From contig OZ245006.1 of NCBI GenBank assembly GCA_965223545.1, forward strand, positions 1,312,001 through 1,376,000: a stretch of 64,000 nt of DNA, written 5' to 3'. Under the pieces are notes generated by a model. It saw nothing but the letters and a program-made list of their open reading frames with translations, did not search any database and had not been told where the DNA came from. This stretch comes from Planctomycetota bacterium. Lineage in GTDB: Bacteria; Planctomycetota; UBA1135; UBA2386. Shown here one piece after another: positions 23,028-30,580 of this stretch (positions are counted from its first letter, which is position 1; the number at the start of each line of letters is the position of its first letter). The position numbers were made by a program, and so were the translations under genes.

Positions 23028-25211
23028 CTACGGCTGGGCGCCGGCCCGGTACACGACGCGGTGGATGCCCTTGTCCGTTCCCGAGAGGTAGTCGAATCGG
23101 CCATCTTCGTGGACGCGGCCGACCAGCGTGTCATGTGGTTTGCGTCCAAGGAGCAACGCGCTGCCACTGCGGCCCATCGACGGGCGGGTCAACGGTGGGT
23201 ATTCGGTGAGGCACGTGATCCCGTCCAACGACAGGCCATTGACCGGCGACAGAGGGTCTGTTGGACGACCGGCCGGCGTGAGGGTGCGCCACATCGCGAG
23301 GTGGACTCCCTGCGGGCACGCGCGCAGGTGACCGACCTCCTGCCGTTGGCCGATCGGGACGAAGTGCGCAACCTCTCCGTCGCGGTAGAACTCGAGCACG
23401 GGCAGCCGATTCTTGCGCGGCGTCCCGACCGAGACCGGCACGCCGTAGCGCACCCAGTAAAGACCCGGCTTGCCGTTCTCGGTCACGCGGTCTTCGGCAA
23501 GGTGAGGCGCGATCCTCAGCCGGTCCTTCGCTGAATCGGCGAGTCGAGCGAAGCGCTCGCCGTTCAAGTACATCCAAGCACCCTGCTCTTCCGCCTCCAG
23601 GTCCCGAGCGGCAAAGCCGACGACGCACGCGTAGTGGGACCCGTCTCGGCTGAACACGGGAGCGTCGATTTGCGTGGCTCCGTGCAACCGGTGGACGCCG
23701 TCGTTGCTGATCAAGCTCCAACTGAAGTCGGAAGTGGCCCGACCTCCTCCATCGGCGCCGTTGACGACCACGGCGAAGCGCCCGCTCTCGTGTGCCGCGA
23801 CGACGTTGACGCGGCCAAGGGCGACCTCCTCTTCCTTGCCGGGTCTGCAGAGGAAGACGCGCTTGCCGACCGTGGCGACGTAGGTCGGGGCCGTGTCGCC
23901 AGGAGTGAAACCGACGTGGCGCACGGTCTCGTACTCGTTGCCGATGCCCTCCGCGGTGGCTACGGCAAGCCCGCCACCGGTCTTCGTAACGAACGCGACT
24001 TGACCACCATTCGACACCACGGGAGCGTTGCCGGCACTCCAATCCAACGGAGCGTGCTCGAGTTCCACGCCCTGGTGCACGACTGCGAGCTCGTTGCGCC
24101 GCCCGTCCTCCGTCCGCCGCTGCCTCGGGTAGACGAAGTGTTGCCCATCAGGGCTGAACACGGGCAGCCCGTCACAACCATCCAGCGGCTCCATCCCCTC
24201 GACGAGGAGCCGGCCGCCGGTCGCCGTGACCTCGTGGATCACCAGGCGCCCATCCGGTGCCACGGCAATCAGGTCGCCCTGACCGGCCAGCTCGCCCTCG
24301 ACGTAGACGGCGTAGTTGGGCACACCACCCTCCCCGCGGCCATTGCGACCGCGCGCCACCCAGCGCTCGTCGGCCAAGAACAGCAACTCGCCCATCCACT
24401 CGGCCTGCACCACGACCTCGCCGTCGACGACGACGACGTGCTCCAACTCCCCGGTGCGCATGCCGAAGTAGCCGAACCGCTTGCCGGACGGCGAGAACGC
24501 GAGCGCCTCGGTCGGCGGTTGCGCCAGCTCGGGCCCCTCGCGCCCATCGATCACGACGACGTAGCGGTCGCCGCGCCGGCCGATGTAGGCCAACCGATGT
24601 CCGGTTGGCCCGAGGACGAGCCCCGGCATCTCCAGGATCTCGTCGAAAGTCGGCCCGGTACTGCCGCCGAACTCCACCGCCACGCGGCTGCCCACCGGTC
24701 GGGTGATGGCGGCACGCTGCAAGTCGTCGGACACCGCGACGTGAGTCCGCATTTCGTCCACGTCGGTCGTGAAGCTGCCCGGCCGATCGTGGACCTTCAT
24801 GCGCTTCGACCAGCGCCCTTTCCACTCGATCAGCGGGCTCACATCCAGCGGCTGGAGATCCGTGAGCTCGATCCCCGAGGCACTGGCGGGCTGCGCAGCG
24901 CCCGTCGCCCCCTGGTCGACCGCCGGCTCCGCGCGCGGGTCACCATCGGCGACGCGCGGATCGGCCGGGCGCTTGTAGGGTTGCTTCGAGGTCGGCGTCT
25001 CGGCAGCGGGCGGGGCCTTGCCGGCCGGCGACGTCTCCGCGGCAGGCGGCGTCTCCGCGGCCACGTCGAACAGCTCCCCAACCGTGCGCTTTGCGCTCTC
25101 CAGCCCTTCTTGGATGGCGCCACAGCCGGGCGCGGCGACCAGCAAGAAGACGGGAAGCAGGACCATGGCGGCAGCGAACGCCACAGTGCGATGGGCGGGT
25201 GGTTGGAGCAT
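23028..25211 (-). CDS. Hypothetical lipoprotein with TolB/WD40-like beta-propeller repeats
   Basis: Lipobox-like AAPGC, Pro/Ala linker, repeats FSPSGKRFGY, FSPDGQHFVY, FSRDGSHYA. Start uncertain. Confidence 0.7.
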   Translation of the reverse strand: MLQPPAHRTVAFAAAMVLLPVFLLVAAPGCGAIQEGLESAKRTVGELFDVAAETPPAAETSPAGKAPPAAETPTSKQPYKRPADPRVADGDPRAEPAVDQGATGAAQPASASGIELTDLQPLDVSPLIEWKGRWSKRMKVHDRPGSFTTDVDEMRTHVAVSDDLQRAAITRPVGSRVAVEFGGSTGPTFDEILEMPGLVLGPTGHRLAYIGRRGDRYVVVIDGREGPELAQPPTEALAFSPSGKRFGYFGMRTGELEHVVVVDGEVVVQAEWMGELLFLADERWVARGRNGRGEGGVPNYAVYVEGELAGQGDLIAVAPDGRLVIHEVTATGGRLLVEGMEPLDGCDGLPVFSPDGQHFVYPRQRRTEDGRRNELAVVHQGVELEHAPLDWSAGNAPVVSNGGQVAFVTKTGGGLAVATAEGIGNEYETVRHVGFTPGDTAPTYVATVGKRVFLCRPGKEEEVALGRVNVVAAHESGRFAVVVNGADGGGRATSDFSWSLISNDGVHRLHGATQIDAPVFSRDGSHYACVVGFAARDLEAEEQGAWMYLNGERFARLADSAKDRLRIAPHLAEDRVTENGKPGLYWVRYGVPVSVGTPRKNRLPVLEFYRDGEVAHFVPIGQRQEVGHLRACPQGVHLAMWRTLTPAGRPTDPLSPVNGLSLDGITCLTEYPPLTRPSMGRSGSALLLGRKPHDTLVGRVHEDGRFDYLSGTDKGIHRVVYRAGAQP

Positions 25212-25402
25212 GGGAGACCTCGATGGACGGTCGACGACGACGGGGTCGCCGCCCCGCGCTCGCGGGGCGGACACCGGCCTGACCGACCAGGCGTTCGTCA
25301 TACCATGCGTAGGGGGCCCCCCGCTACCGCACCGATTTTCGCGGCAACGCCAGTCTCTCCCCAACCGCCCACCACAAGGCGGGCTCGCGGCAGGCGTGGC
25401 GG

Positions 25403-26353
25403 TCAGTGGTCGCGCAGCGACTCCTTGAGTTGCTCCAGTCCCTGCTCCAAACGACTGAGGTAGCGGTCGAGCCGGCGGTCGCCGGCCATGCGCTCCTTGA
25501 GCTCGCGCATCAGCCGTTCGTAGAGAGCCACGTCGCTCTCGGCCACTGCGTGGGCAAACAGATACTGCCAGAACGACGTGACCTGCGAGCTGGTCGGCAC
25601 GCGACCGGCATCGAGCATCGCCAAGAACTTCGCGCCGCCAGCGGCCATCTCGGTGCGCTTCGTGGAGCGGAGGATGTCGCGAAACTCGAGATTCACCAAC
25701 ATCGGTTGCAGGGGGCGCAGCTCCTCGTCGTCGAGCGAGAAGCGCTGCAGCGCCGCCTGCGCTTCGGCAAACGTGATGTAGCCCTCGCGCAGCTCCAGGG
25801 CGAAGAGCTCACGGGCGGCGGCGCCCGCCGGATCATCGATCGCCGCCTTGCGGCGCTGGTAGTCGTGCAGCTTGACGTAGGCCTGCTCGAGCTGGTCCAT
25901 GGTGACGACGTGGCCGACCTGCACGAGGAGGCGGCCGTCGGCACCGAGGAACGAGACCGTCGGGAAGCCGTTGCCACCCTTCTCGAACAGCAGGTCGGGA
26001 TACGGTTCGTCGTCACAATGCGACGTGTTGTGCAAGAACAGCACCACCTTCTTGGACCACTGCGCGAAGTCGTCGGTCGAGAGCGCACGGCTCTCGAGGG
26101 CGTCACACGGGCCTCAAGGTGCGTAGCTGCGCGTGAAGTAGGTCAGGATCAGCTTGCCGTCCGCCTCCGCCTCGCGGCGCGCGGCATCGTAGTCGAGCCG
26201 CCACGCGGCATTCTTGAACACTGGCTTGGCGAGCTTCTCGGACCGCTGCGCGCGCAGCCGCTCCTGATCGCCACCCGCTTGGGCACACGCCAGCCCACTG
26301 AGCAGCACCGCACCGACCGCGGTCCAACCGGTCACACCGATGAGTCGAGACAA
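25403..26353 (-). CDS. Exported thioredoxin-fold selenoprotein (UGPC motif; Sec UGA at 26114-26116)
   Basis: AAGGAGG RBS then TTG at 26353; signal ...LACA-Q; W-x-x-D-Y-D-A-A...GKLILTYFTRSYAP-[TGA]-GPC continues in frame (66 nt to the next track ORF); GFPTVSFL cis-Pro loop; helical C-terminus. Confidence 0.85.
26077..26097 (-). promoter_or_regulatory. Putative bacterial SECIS hairpin
   Basis: Perfect 8-bp stem UCGAGAGC/GCUCUCGA with loop CGUGC, beginning after a 16-nt spacer 3' of the UGA. Confidence 0.7.
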
Positions 26354-26480
26354 AGGCACCTCCTTGGAATGCGCTTGTGATACGACAAACCCGACCGGGG
26401 TTCGCATTCCGCCGTTTTTTGCCGTCCTGCGTGCTGGCGTCACCGTTGCGCGCCGCCATCCGGCCCGTCACACTGCGGCG

Positions 26481-27440
26481 ATGAGTGCCGCACCCTCCAT
26501 CGAGGCCGTCGAGACCCTCCTCGACCGCCCCCTGCTGGATCTTGTCTACGAGGCCGCAACGGTGCACCGGACCCACCACGCCCCGGGCGCGGTGCAGTGT
26601 GCCCAGCTCGCCAGCATCAAGACCGGGGGTTGCCCCGAGGACTGTGGCTACTGCTCGCAGAGCGCGCGTTTCGACACCCCGATCGAGGCCCACGCGCTGC
26701 TGCCCGCGAGCGAAGTGCTGGCGCGCGCCCAGGCCGCCGCCGCCGGCGGCGCCGACCGGTTTTGCATGGGCGCTGCCTGGCGCGCGGCGCCGGAGGGGGC
26801 GCGTTTCGAGTCGGTCCTGCAGATGGTGCGCGAGGTCAAGGCGCTCGGTCTGGAGACCTGCGCGACGCTCGGCATGCTGACGAAAGGGCAGGCGGAACGG
26901 CTGCGCGAGGCCGGCCTCGACTACTACAACCACAACCTCGACACCGGCCGCAGCCACTACGGGCACGTCGTCACCACGCGTACCTACGACGATCGCCTGC
27001 AGACGCTGGCGCACGCGCGGGAGGCCGGCCTGAAGCTCTGCTGTGGTGGCATTCTCGGCCTCGGCGAGGACCGCCGGGCGCGCGCCGAGCTGCTCGTCGA
27101 GCTGGCAGCGATGGCGCCGCCGCCCGAGTCCGTGCCGATCAACACGCTGGTCCCGGTCGAGGGCACGCCGATGCAGCATCACGAGCCCGTCGATTGGAGT
27201 GAGGTGCTGCGCACGGTCGCCGCGGCGCGCATCGTGCTGCCGGCAAGCGCGCTCCGGCTCAGCGCCGGGCGCCGCGAGCTCGGCGAGGCCGGCCAGGCTC
27301 TCTGCTTCCTGGCGGGCGCGAACTCCATCTTCACCGGAGACGTCCTGCTCACCGCGGCCAACGCGACGCCGGACGCCGACGCCACCCTGCTGGCCAAGCT
27401 CGGTCTCCATCGCTCGGCGCACGCGACGGCGGCGCGATGA
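26481..27440 (+). CDS. bioB: Biotin synthase
   Basis: SIKTGGCPEDCGYCSQS radical-SAM motif, YNHNLDT, PESVPIN. Confidence 0.97.
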   Translation: MSAAPSIEAVETLLDRPLLDLVYEAATVHRTHHAPGAVQCAQLASIKTGGCPEDCGYCSQSARFDTPIEAHALLPASEVLARAQAAAAGGADRFCMGAAWRAAPEGARFESVLQMVREVKALGLETCATLGMLTKGQAERLREAGLDYYNHNLDTGRSHYGHVVTTRTYDDRLQTLAHAREAGLKLCCGGILGLGEDRRARAELLVELAAMAPPPESVPINTLVPVEGTPMQHHEPVDWSEVLRTVAAARIVLPASALRLSAGRRELGEAGQALCFLAGANSIFTGDVLLTAANATPDADATLLAKLGLHRSAHATAAR

Positions 27441-30400
27441 CTCCGCCGGACGCCGCGGCACGCCGCCGCGCCCTGTGGCAGGGCGAGCTGGACGACCTGC
27501 GCGCGCAGGACCGACTGCGCGCGTTGCCGGGTCGGCCGGCCGGCATCGATTTCGTTTCCAACGACTACCTCGGGCTGCGGCACCACCCCGCGTTGCGGCG
27601 CGCGGCGCACACCGCCATCACCCGCGATGGCTGCGGCGCCGGCGCAGCGCGCCTGCTCGGTGGCGCGGCGGAGGCCAGCCTCGCCCTCGAGCACCGCGTC
27701 GCCGCCTGGCTGGGCACGCCCGCCGCCTTGCTGTTCCCGTCGGGCTATCAAGCCAACTTGGGCGTGATCACCGCGCTGGCCGATCGCGAGGACGTCATCC
27801 TCAGCGACGCCTTGATCCACGCGTCCTCGATCGATGCCTGCCGGCAGACGCGCGCCACGGTCCGCGTGTTCGCCCATGCGGACCTGGAGGCTTTGGACGC
27901 CGCGCTGACGGCCGGACGCGACGCCCGCCGCCGGTTGGTCCTGACCGAGGGCGTGTTCGGCATGGACGGCGACGTGCCACGCTTGCGCGAGATGCACGCA
28001 CTGTGCGCGGCGCACGACGCCTGGCTGATCGTCGACGAGGCGCACTCCGCCGGCCTGCTCGGTCCGCGCGGGCGCGGCGCGTGGGCAGCGCACGGCGGCC
28101 GGGACGACCGCGCGCTGGCAGCCCGTGTCGTCACCTTCGGCAAGGCGCTCGGCAGCGCGGGCGCAGCGGTGGCGGGCGATGCCGAGCTGTGCGCACTGCT
28201 CGCCCAACGGGCACGCAGCTTCGTGTTCAGCACGGCGCCGGCGCCGGCGGTCATTGCCGCTGCCGGCGCAGCCATCGAGCTCGTCCAGCAAAGCTCGGCC
28301 GAGCGCGACCGCGCACTGCAGCTGGCGCGGCGGTTGGCACACGGGCTCGACCTGCAGCCGCCGGATGCGGCAATCGTGCCACTTCCGGTCGGCGACGACG
28401 CTCGCGCGGTGCAGCTGGCGACCACGCTGCAACAACGCGGTTTCGACGTCCGCGCCGTCCGGCCGCCAACCGTGCCCCCTGGCACGGCACGGCTCCGGCT
28501 GGTGTGCCACGCCACCAACACCGAAGCGCAAGTCGATGCGCTGGTCGAGGTGATCACCGCGCCGGCTGCACGCACGGAGCGGAGTCGCCGCGCCGGCGGA
28601 GGGGGACGGGGTGATGAACGGGAGCCTGGCTCCGTACGTTCGTGTCAGGTGTTTGTCGCGGGGACGGACACCGGGATCGGCAAGACGGTGGTCGCCGCCG
28701 CGCTCGTACGTTCGCTGGGTGGAGGGAGTGGAGGTGCGGTGCGCTACTACAAGCCGGTGCAGACTGGTGAGGACGACGACACGGGGACGGTGCGCGCGCT
28801 CACCGGCGACGCCGCGGCCACCGCGGCGCCGCCGCTGCACGAGTTGCCGCTGCCCGCTTCGCCGCACGAGGCGGCGCGGGACGCAGGCGTGCAGATCGAT
28901 CTCGGTTCGGTGCGCGATTCGCTGCACCGGCTGCAGGCGGCGGGGCCCGCCGGTGCGGACTGGGTCGTCGAGCTGGCCGGCGGCTTGATGGTGCCGTATG
29001 GCGACGGCTCGCTGCAGATCGACTGGCTCGCCGAAGCCGCGGCCGGCGGCGCCCGGGTGGTCCTGGTCGCGCGCTCGGGACTCGGCACCCTCAACCACAG
29101 CTTGCTGTCGCTGCAGGCGCTGCGCGCGCGCGGCGTGACGCCCACGGCGCTGGTGCTGGTCGGCGCGCCCCACGATAGCAACCGCGCCACCCTCGCCGCG
29201 CTCGCGGCCCCGGTGCCGGTCGTCGAGCTGCCTGTTCTCGAGCCCTTGACCGCAGAGACTCTCGCGCAGTGGGCCGCGACCCACGACTGGCCCGCGCTGC
29301 TGCGCGCGACCGAACCCGTTGCGGAAGAGGACTGGGCCGTGCGTGGCCATCGCTGCCTGTGGCATCCCTACACCCAGCACGGCACCGACGACACTCCGCT
29401 GCCCGTCGTCGAAGCCAGCGGCTCGTGGCTGACCTTGGCCGACGGCCGCCGCATCCTCGACGGGATCTCGTCGTGGTGGACCTCACTGCACGGCCACGGC
29501 CGTGCCGAGATCCTCGACGCGGTCCGCACCCAGGGTGCGCGCCTCGACCACGTGCTGTTCGCCGGCGCCACCCACCGGCCGGCAGTCGAGCTCGCCGAGC
29601 GGCTGCTCGCCCTGGCACCGCCCGGTCTGGCCCGCGTGTTCTACAGTGACGACGGCTCCACCGCGGTGGAGGTCGCGTTGAAGATCGTGCGCCAGGCGTG
29701 GGTGCAGCGCGGCGAGCCCCAGCGCCGGGTCCTCGTCGCCCTCGATGGCGGCTACCACGGCGACACCCTCGGCGCGATGGCGGTCGGCGACCCCGAGCCG
29801 TTCTTCGCCGCCTACCGGCCGTGGCTGTTCGAGGTCGAACGCGTGCCCGCCGAGGCCGAGGCCATCGCCGGTGCGTTGCAGCGGTTGGGAGAGCGCGCCG
29901 CCGGGGTGATCGCCGAGCCCCTGGTGCAGGGGGCGGCCGGAATGCGCATGCACGGACCCGAGCTGCTGCAAACGATCCGTGCCGTGTGCGATCGCCACGA
30001 CGTGCCGTGGATCGCCGACGAAGTGATGACGGGCTTCGGCCGCACGGGCGCCGTGTTCGCCTGCAGCCACGCGGGCGTCCGCCCCGACCTGATGTGCGTC
30101 GCGAAGGGGCTGACCGGCGGCGTGCTGCCGCTCGCCGCGACGCTGGTCGCCGAGCCGTGGTTCGAGGCGTTCCTCGCCCCCGACAAGGGCCGCATGTTCT
30201 TTCACGGCCACTCCTTTACCGCCAACCCATTGGGCTGCGCCGCCGCCCTGGCCTCGCTGGACTTGATCGAGCGCGAAGCGACGCCGCTGCGGCTGGACGG
30301 GCTCGGCCAACGCATCGAGACCGAGCTGCGGCGCCGGCTTCCCAACCCGGCGGCGCTCGGTCTTCGCCGCTGCGGCGGCATCGTCGCGCTCGACGTTCAG

Positions 30401-30580
30401 CGAGACGGTGGCTACCTCGACGACATCGCAGGAACGCTGCGGGCGGCGGCAGTCGAACGCGGCTGTCTGCTGCGCCCGCTGGGACCGGTGGTCTACGCGA
30501 TGCCCCCCGCCTCGACGACCGAGGCCGAGGCCGACCGGATCGCCGACGTCATGGCGAGCCTGGCCGAGGGTGCTGGTTGA
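27437..30580 (+). CDS. Trifunctional BioF-BioD-BioA fusion (AON synthase / dethiobiotin synthetase / DAPA aminotransferase)
   Basis: BioF: FVSNDYLGL, DEAH, TFGKALG. BioD: GTDTGIGKT, YKPVQTG, ELAGG, LGTLNH. BioA: WHPYTQ, DGISSWW, DEVMTGFGRTG, AKGLTGG. Confidence 0.92.
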   Translation: MTPPDAAARRRALWQGELDDLRAQDRLRALPGRPAGIDFVSNDYLGLRHHPALRRAAHTAITRDGCGAGAARLLGGAAEASLALEHRVAAWLGTPAALLFPSGYQANLGVITALADREDVILSDALIHASSIDACRQTRATVRVFAHADLEALDAALTAGRDARRRLVLTEGVFGMDGDVPRLREMHALCAAHDAWLIVDEAHSAGLLGPRGRGAWAAHGGRDDRALAARVVTFGKALGSAGAAVAGDAELCALLAQRARSFVFSTAPAPAVIAAAGAAIELVQQSSAERDRALQLARRLAHGLDLQPPDAAIVPLPVGDDARAVQLATTLQQRGFDVRAVRPPTVPPGTARLRLVCHATNTEAQVDALVEVITAPAARTERSRRAGGGGRGDEREPGSVRSCQVFVAGTDTGIGKTVVAAALVRSLGGGSGGAVRYYKPVQTGEDDDTGTVRALTGDAAATAAPPLHELPLPASPHEAARDAGVQIDLGSVRDSLHRLQAAGPAGADWVVELAGGLMVPYGDGSLQIDWLAEAAAGGARVVLVARSGLGTLNHSLLSLQALRARGVTPTALVLVGAPHDSNRATLAALAAPVPVVELPVLEPLTAETLAQWAATHDWPALLRATEPVAEEDWAVRGHRCLWHPYTQHGTDDTPLPVVEASGSWLTLADGRRILDGISSWWTSLHGHGRAEILDAVRTQGARLDHVLFAGATHRPAVELAERLLALAPPGLARVFYSDDGSTAVEVALKIVRQAWVQRGEPQRRVLVALDGGYHGDTLGAMAVGDPEPFFAAYRPWLFEVERVPAEAEAIAGALQRLGERAAGVIAEPLVQGAAGMRMHGPELLQTIRAVCDRHDVPWIADEVMTGFGRTGAVFACSHAGVRPDLMCVAKGLTGGVLPLAATLVAEPWFEAFLAPDKGRMFFHGHSFTANPLGCAAALASLDLIEREATPLRLDGLGQRIETELRRRLPNPAALGLRRCGGIVALDVQRDGGYLDDIAGTLRAAAVERGCLLRPLGPVVYAMPPASTTEAEADRIADVMASLAEGAG

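Follow-up and report, generated by a model that had tools for sequence, protein, structure and literature searches.

Selenoproteins in which a thioredoxin fold carries selenocysteine (Sec) at the first position of its CxxC motif, the UxxC type, are an established class, whose entries in Table 1 of PMC13188914 include thioredoxin (PF00085), a thiol:disulfide interchange protein (PF13098), a DsbG-like protein (NF041057), SaoT and HUIPC. The available text of the same paper models the bacterial Sec insertion sequence (bSECIS) as a stem of 4-16 bp closed by a loop of 3-9 nt, with a G in the first two loop positions, the loop lying 16-37 nt from the UGA and the minimum free energy at or below -7.5 kcal/mol. 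Two further systems bear on the present case in the parts of the literature that we could draw on: DsbH of Chlamydia, a reducing periplasmic oxidoreductase (PMC4217174), and the DsbD/ScsB pathways, which in other bacteria feed peroxiredoxins as well as thioredoxin-like proteins of the envelope (PMC3322552). Here we describe a minus-strand gene in a 64,000-nucleotide stretch (the window) of contig OZ245006.1, from a Planctomycetota bacterium. It is almost certainly one gene in which a conserved in-frame UGA, at codon 80, is read as selenocysteine. That it belongs to a real family of UxxC thioredoxin-fold selenoproteins is well supported, the recoding mechanism itself being ordinary.

A preliminary description of the locus had proposed that two open reading frames (ORFs), 26114-26443 and 25403-26047, are a single frame interrupted by one TGA. 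Both indeed lie in one minus-strand frame and are split solely by that codon, in the context YFTRSYAP-TGA-GPCDALE. Translation through it from the TTG at 26353 yields the 316 residues that had been claimed, and the strong Shine-Dalgarno sequence that had been noted is found just before this start (Table 1). Because that sequence belongs to the TTG, we did not favour the upstream GTG/ATG starts at 26443 and 26407. A look at the reads had also been proposed: a short-read contig from a public run (X1) spans the whole stretch with 0 differences, although it is not independent, because it possibly comes from the sample behind this DNA.

Table 1. Features of the selenoprotein gene, in positions of the window.
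Feature	Positions	Strand	Details or basis
Whole gene	25403..26353	-	TTG start, 316 codons, internal TGA at codon 80, terminal TGA at 25405-25403
Shine-Dalgarno sequence AAGGAGG	26359..26365	-	sequence; 5 nt upstream of the TTG at 26353
Predicted signal peptide (signal peptidase I type), residues 1-24, cleavage likely between ACA and Q	26282..26353	-	hydropathy heuristic
Thioredoxin-fold domain, residues ~47-165, DsbH-like	25859..26215	-	Pfam Thioredoxin_7 and structure model
In-frame TGA, codon 80, predicted selenocysteine, first position of U-G-P-C	26114..26116	-	TGA/TGC counts in relatives
Cys83, predicted resolving cysteine	26105..26107	-	Cys three residues past the TGA in 93/93 TGA loci
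SECIS-like hairpin within the ORF	26077..26097	-	8-bp stem, CGUGC loop starting 24 nt after the UGA
GFPT loop, residues 129-132, Pro131	25958..25969	-	alignment of 36 members
All-helical C-terminal domain, residues 166-316, 8 helices, loosely TPR-like	25406..25858	-	structure model

We read the codon equivalent to codon 80 in 110 related loci, 30 from a search of 61 sampled genomes (the host genome, here G000, with 36 of its family and 24 of its order) and the best 80 of 259 from a scan of genome contigs with an alignment as query; a single protein query gave 0 matches in that scan. After filtering by motif and removal of duplicates, 99 distinct sites remained. At these, the codon is TGA in 93, TGC in 4, AGC in 1, TTC in 1 and TAA or TAG in 0, so the TGA or Cys that the preliminary description had looked for in homologs is what they carry. 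The terminal stop falls at roughly the same position in relatives and is TAG or TAA in 17 of 35. Because the internal codon is never TAA or TAG while the terminal one so often is, the internal TGA is not stop-like. Read-through of the terminal TGA was rejected on the same 17 of 35 TAG/TAA ends and on the closure of the frame 34 codons later.

The hairpin downstream of the TGA is as it had been described: a 16-nt spacer, then an 8-bp Watson-Crick stem (26097-26090 with 26084-26077) around a CGUGC loop. It fits the published bSECIS model, with its 5-nt C-G-U-G-C loop, 8 bp, a distance of 24 nt and energies of -15 to -26 kcal/mol. Its folding energy by itself is unremarkable for DNA of 70% GC (z = -1.28; 22 of 200 shuffles as good), but among 20,000 random TGA triplets of the host genome only 0.105% are followed, at the same distance, by a stem of this kind with a G[G/U] loop. 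Across the 93 TGA loci, 93.4% of 744 stem cells are paired, against 86.1% in shuffled and at most 62.6% in slid controls, and 43 cells show two-sided (compensatory) changes against 7.8 in shuffled ones; neither value was reached in any of 500 shuffles. Two other measures, based on counts of pairs or of pair types, were unexceptional, being reached in 187 and 77 of the 500. The pair that joins two third-codon positions is G-C in 70 loci, C-G in 17 and unpaired in 6. On a quick, unrooted tree of 100 rows the C-G form needs 11 changes, at least 4 of them forced by strong branches, and thus this state is not one inherited event. The loop is equally constrained: its codon is GGT in 45 of 51 Gly loci (14% in the same gene bodies), CGT in 17 of 19 Arg loci (9%) and AGT in 10 of 13 Ser loci (5%), so that rare codons preserve the loop G-U for each of these three amino acids. 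The hairpin is under RNA-level selection. While 83 of the 93 TGA loci have 7-8 of the 8 stem pairs, the six non-TGA loci have 8, 6, 5, 5, 4 and 4; the one with all 8, a locus with TGC at the codon (L110), also has the G-U loop intact, and its stem is likely a relic of a Sec form.

The machinery for such recoding, for which a search had been suggested, is complete in the host genome (8.1 Mb, 70% GC, 91% complete). We found selA (464 bits, cut-off 268), selB (318 bits, cut-off 242), selD (346 bits, cut-off 125) and tRNA-Sec, selC (74 bits, cut-off 47; anticodon TCA), all above curated cut-offs, with selD carrying an in-frame TGA and hairpin of its own. Within the 61-genome sample selA exceeds its cut-off in 60 genomes and selB in 59. 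TGA is also the commonest stop of the host genome, closing 1730 of 2354 long ORFs, and codon 80 aligns with Cys; UGA as Trp, or any other global recoding, was rejected on these two grounds. From established biology, SelB bound to the hairpin would bring Sec-tRNA to the UGA, and we regard this step as close to certain.

The protein itself has the parts that the preliminary description had listed. Its N-terminus is signal-like by a hydropathy heuristic rather than SignalP, and a basic residue with a hydrophobic core is seen in 33 of 36 aligned family members, as is an (A/G/S)-Q cleavage-like motif (33/36). The same heuristic gave no transmembrane segment in the mature protein, and a lipoprotein anchor at Cys23 was rejected, a lipobox being present in 0 of 36 members. 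An AlphaFold2 model (predicted local distance difference test, pLDDT, 92.4; low over residues 1-20) comprises an N-terminal helix, a thioredoxin fold and, downstream of it, the helical C-terminal domain that had been claimed, which also folds confidently when modelled alone. A strand at 69-75 precedes a helix at 81-88, with U80 at the start of this active-site helix. Thioredoxin_7 (PF13899) matches residues 51-138 at 29.8 bits (gathering cut-off 27) and is matched by 36 of 36 members at E≤0.01. The GFPT loop was likewise found where expected: Pro131 is invariant (36/36), with Phe before it in 33, and by its position it would be the cis-Pro of thioredoxin folds. The third position of the redox motif is Pro in 92 of 93 Sec loci (U-x-P-C; GP in 49, PP in 37), and His108 and the FTRSY stretch beside the redox site are invariant or nearly so.

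For the whole chain, we lean slightly toward a recoded, exported thiol-disulfide reductase of the cell envelope that is fed by DsbD. Export by the general secretion pathway, which would cut off residues 1-24, is very probable. The Sec80 selenolate would then attack client proteins of the envelope at their disulfides or oxidised cysteines. Cys83 would resolve the resulting mixed bond, leaving a Se-S bridge that the single DsbD of the host genome would re-reduce with cytoplasmic electrons; we consider this chemistry reasonably probable as proposed. The helical domain may select clients or partners. The earlier label of a periplasmic Sec-oxidoreductase is consistent with a signal-like N-terminus followed by a thioredoxin fold that has an invariant proline, export and activity being predicted from these. 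In favour of a reductase, the closest solved structure is that of DsbH, described as a reducing enzyme. One DsbD-type membrane domain is present in the host genome, and neither DsbB (PF02600) nor VKOR (PF07884) has a match in this 91%-complete assembly. The DsbD gene (L133:131-2059, minus strand; TGA at 4306602 of contig C1) carries a TGA of its own in the gamma domain, in U-V-N-C (T-TGA-VNC), with a strong hairpin. Gamma-region matches in the sampled genomes contain one TGA in 40 of 50 rows, a count of rows rather than of positions read row by row. Sec-containing DsbD of this form has no named entry in the table of PMC13188914, as far as that source was available; the only related entry there is TsoB, a rhodanese/DsbD fusion.

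Several points weigh against this account. The related loci are non-independent, and the sample, made up of 30 loci from the 61 genomes and the best 80 of 259 and then passed through a motif filter, is weighted to close relatives. As for function, the modelled fold does not tell a reductase from an isomerase, oxidase or chaperone, identity to DsbH is only ~20%, and the model NF043050 gives 27.9 bits, its cut-off being 190. The missing DsbB and VKOR are weak evidence because the genome is only 91% complete. Neighbours in 81 loci give no conserved link to dsbD or to a client, and several other exported thioredoxin-like Sec candidates of the host genome could take the DsbD electrons instead.

The same selenoprotein might act instead as an envelope chaperedoxin or disulfide isomerase, like a periplasmic CnoX/YbbN (CnoX itself being cytoplasmic) or DsbC/ScsC. 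Its helical domain would hold unfolded or misoxidised exported proteins, and its UxxC site would shield or rearrange the cysteines of these clients. We judge this, the main rival, unlikely, if worth weighing. It draws on the architecture of a thioredoxin domain followed by helical hairpins, on E. coli YbbN as the second Foldseek match (307 columns, E 1.9e-4), and on the rows that VIA-align returned for the C-terminal domain, which include tetratricopeptide repeats (TPRs) of chaperone partners: Sec-complex 6n3q_F (Z 8.4, root-mean-square deviation (rmsd) 3.8, 129 aligned), 8qmo_C (Z 8.1) and AIPL1 (Z 7.5). The tandem and multiple paralogs of the family in sampled genomes also suggest a diversifying client range. 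However, the whole-chain rmsd to YbbN is 22.6, so only the domain order is common to the two. The VIA-align rows are generic TPR-like bundles that name no family, with Z up to 8.4, under the stated threshold of ~13 for helical bundles; the C-terminal domain alone has no Foldseek match at E≤0.001, and no Pfam TPR family was found in the 36 members. Moreover, the redox site is far better conserved than the C-terminal domain (mean identity 0.60 vs 0.42).

We regard as improbable a DsbA-like oxidase that adds disulfides to exported proteins. An exported-type thioredoxin fold would suit such an enzyme, as would the Pro that stands third in the motif at all but one Sec locus, and the host would need an envelope oxidant if disulfides are made there, but it has no match to DsbB or VKOR, and no DsbA appears among 50 VIA-align rows or among the Foldseek matches listed. 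A selenenyl-sulfide is, in addition, generally more reducing than the matching disulfide, which suits a reductant.

About as improbable, in our view, is that the selenoprotein has small molecules (peroxide, selenium or metal species) as its direct substrates instead of protein disulfides. Sec reacts rapidly with peroxides, and the host genome has motif matches that we take to be heme-copper oxidase subunit I and catalase-peroxidase, which make oxidative stress in the envelope plausible; His108 and FTRSY, close to the site, would suit such a role too. Against it, the classical xxC resolving motif and the invariant Pro indicate protein substrates, no peroxiredoxin family matches the 36 members, and separate peroxiredoxin-type Sec candidates exist in the same genome. 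A true stop, whether by nonsense mutation, assembly error, two genes or UGA as Trp, is effectively refuted: TGA is the commonest stop of the genome, databases hold the C-terminal part as an ORF of its own and the hairpin energy alone is unexceptional, but the codon is TGA at 93 of 99 loci and never TAA or TAG where terminal stops vary, it aligns with Cys rather than Trp while TGA ends genes normally, a break there would leave the first redox residue apart from the remainder of its fold, selection acts on the hairpin, and the read contig matches with 0 differences.

The family is widespread. At E≤0.001 the read-through protein matches 53 of the 61 sampled genomes, some weakly, and a profile of 36 members detects the family in 75 of 301 sampled Planctomycetota genomes (E≤1e-25), often in multiple copies, the latter figure counting profile matches rather than TGA positions read row by row. 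All but 3 of the best 80 of 259 related loci come from Planctomycetota or a taxon within it, the 3 being titled 'bacterium'. Atlas clusters contain Cys-type look-alikes, mostly from Planctomycetota with some in other phyla, which we treat as leads only. The preliminary description had predicted that standard annotation would split the gene, and 19 of 21 non-self matches in protein databases are C-terminal pieces that start at or just after the motif, an annotation error that leaves them without signal peptide and catalytic residue. The remaining two (P0004 and P0005) are full-length and carry Cys at the codon 80 position. Longer fused forms were absent among 8000 candidates of 572-2000 aa, which is weak evidence.

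On the 100-row tree the 7 non-Sec rows need 5 changes, and three groups of them are nested among Sec rows. The nested Cys or Ser forms are L037/L110 (genome G034), L015/L044 (genome G021), L062 and L083, and at least two of the three placements fall in genomes that retain selA and selB (G021 and G034). Unrooted as it is, the tree suggests repeated replacement of Sec by Cys or Ser within the family. A paralog in the host genome itself (L150; C1:5164719-5163826, minus strand) has C-G-T-S for U-G-P-C, no matching hairpin and a long tree branch.

The neighbours of the gene are bioB and a fused biotin-synthesis ORF, both divergent from it, and a beta-propeller-like ORF that follows it. The fused ORF (27437-30580, plus strand) stands directly after bioB and encodes 1047 aa that join aminotransferase I/II, AAA_26 and aminotransferase III domains, presumably BioF-BioD-BioA. 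The downstream ORF (23028-25364, minus strand) has a leader-like segment and a weak PD40 propeller match, and is not a conserved neighbour. In the neighbourhoods of 81 loci nothing is conserved except the family's own tandem copies, the largest other cluster comprising 8 of 81; dsbD lies beside a family gene, convergently, in one genome only (G024). A promoter and terminator scan found neither on the minus strand.

We also searched the host genome by script for TGA codons flanked by coding-like sequence and followed by a hairpin, and picked 37 read-through frames by eye. When 31 of these were scanned against NCBIfam, 20 matched families at E≤1e-6 (OxyR, VPGUxxT type 2, deiodinase-like, Grx, AhpD-like, BCP/Prx, DsbD, Trx, MsrA, SelW, TlpA and DG ribbon) and 11 matched none. 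Counting SelD, a gene that from its motif we take to be formate dehydrogenase-like, and the present gene, the genome holds roughly 30 Sec candidates, many of them leader-like by eye; relatives were compared for three candidates besides the present gene. This number is large but no record, because the top ten genomes of BSepDB hold 46-63 selenoprotein genes, according to the available text of PMC13326102.

Among these frames, an OxyR-like one (L118:222-1097, plus strand; TGA at C1 3908806) scores 270 bits with NF008361 (cut-off 329) and has a TGA in EEGH-TGA-LR, with an 8-bp hairpin behind it whose loop is GUC; it is divergent from a peroxiredoxin-type Sec candidate (L140). We take the TGA position to be the peroxide-sensing Cys of OxyR. 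None of 21 other rows (20 relatives) has an internal stop, and all 10 that were read at the motif have Cys; L118 is either a lineage-specific Sec-OxyR or a nonsense mutation. No Sec-OxyR stands in the 119-family table of PMC13188914, in the portion available, and no such paper was found by title.

A frame listed as L146 (L146:1858-2433, minus strand; TGATGA at C1 ~6557605-6557600) and L171 combines PDZ-like and thioredoxin-like parts with two adjacent TGAs (GAET-TGA-TGA-PS). Its hairpin is nearly that of the codon 80 gene and in the same register, and the tandem TGA is kept in the sole relative found (genome G020). Four others, L119, L120, L121 and L122 (TGA at C1 6247186, 2993927, 2580553 and 6151628), have leader-like N-termini, an in-frame TGA and a hairpin, motifs such as GCT-TGA-NNG and EFC-TGA-TNA, and no NCBIfam match; they may resemble the active-site region of eukaryotic selenoprotein N. 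Further read-through candidates without an NCBIfam match, all on C1 (L123, L124, L125, L132, L141 and L142), include a repeat protein with W-TGA-C, a 627-aa protein with WL-TGA-MC, a presumably DUF3179-like protein, a thioredoxin with W-TGA-GWC and two small metal-binding-like proteins, one with two TGAs. The TGA scans also brought up at least ~18 near-identical copies of a repeat on C1 (e.g. at 2159180, 1714949, 7615634 and 4829687), which is probably an insertion sequence.

These data add a widespread family that is unnamed in the 119-entry inventory of PMC13188914, as far as that source was available, and with 93 sequences, compensatory third-position changes and a loop G-U held across Gly, Arg and Ser, they offer an unusually clean natural set of SECIS elements. 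The available text of that paper states that the retention of selenoproteins is rare among aerobic bacteria, as are bacterial replacements of Sec by Cys except in FdhA and SelD; in contrast, a genome with a heme-copper oxidase motif here holds some 30 candidates, and Cys or Ser forms are nested at three places of the tree. Tentatively, the family may be a node of a selenium-based reductive network in the envelope of oxygen-respiring Planctomycetota, with the present protein a periplasmic seleno-chaperedoxin. DsbD, TlpA-like relays, peroxiredoxins, MsrA and several unnamed exported thioredoxin-fold families would then use Sec for Cys. If so, the seleno-chaperedoxin would couple the holding of clients to Sec chemistry, and the network would contradict the notion that selenoproteins are seldom kept in aerobes and would exhibit repeated Sec-to-Cys reversion in a bacterial family.

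In the literature, we found no paper that describes the family. The main texts of deep-Sep (PMC12013277) and BSepDB, in the versions available, do not mention Planctomycetota, a name with 407 occurrences in the BSepDB genome table. The 119-family inventory (PMC13188914) has no entry that names this architecture, and its available text does not contain 'Planctomyc'. The family is apparently uncatalogued, although the BSepDB family table lay outside the comparison and a listing under a broad name is possible. NCBIfam gave no model at cut-off for the 4 proteins with scores listed, selenoprotein models being far below, and over the 36 members the best E-values of these models are ~1e-6. For PF13098 the query has no match at E≤0.1 and 17 of 36 members match at E≤0.01; judged by this profile, rather than by the listed representative or BSepDB entries, some members could fall under that broad entry.

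With the described UxxC selenoproteins the present protein shares the UGA at the first CxxC position, the SelB-type hairpin within the ORF, the thioredoxin fold and Cys homologs, according to the entries available to us. It differs from them in joining a signal peptide, a Thioredoxin_7 domain with FTRSY-x-x-U-x-P-C and a 150-aa helical domain. Chlamydia DsbH (2ju5) is its best profile match among solved structures (E 1.7e-7) and its top Foldseek match (E 5.6e-5, rmsd 2.6), and in VIA-align (Z 11.4, rmsd 2.5, 116 aligned) it ties for the top with 3ira and 7tkv (Z 11.4-11.9). Both proteins are exported, here by prediction, and have an extra N-terminal segment before the core fold, but DsbH is a single Cys domain of ~150-166 aa, whereas the present protein has Sec and the additional helical domain, in line with its low NF043050 score. 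The Trx7/PDZ (NF041199) and VPGUxxT (NF041382/NF041383) selenoproteins are also of Thioredoxin_7 type, with weak cross-matches in 11 and 9 of 36 members, respectively. They differ in their CxxU or VPGU motifs, as opposed to UxxC, and in their PDZ or MsrA-like partner domains. With NF041199 (cut-off 300) the query has no match at E≤1 and P0005 scores 16.9 bits, and Pfam finds no PDZ domain; a true NF041383 member (L126, 364.9 bits vs 275) is encoded elsewhere in the host genome.

The order of an N-terminal thioredoxin and a helical-hairpin domain recalls CnoX/YbbN (3qou, 3qdn; available parts of PMC10998233 and PMC8129009). That protein is a GroEL partner with true TPRs and no Sec, unlike the present family with its signal-like N-terminus (33/36), lack of Pfam TPRs and rmsd of 22.6. 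Finally, the pathways fed by DsbD/ScsB (TlpA, PprX and MsrA in the available text of PMC3322552) have candidate counterparts in the host genome, namely DsbD, a TlpA-like protein, a BCP-type peroxiredoxin and MsrA, the latter two with leader-like N-termini. Unlike the known pathways, each of these counterparts has an in-frame TGA at a redox Cys position.

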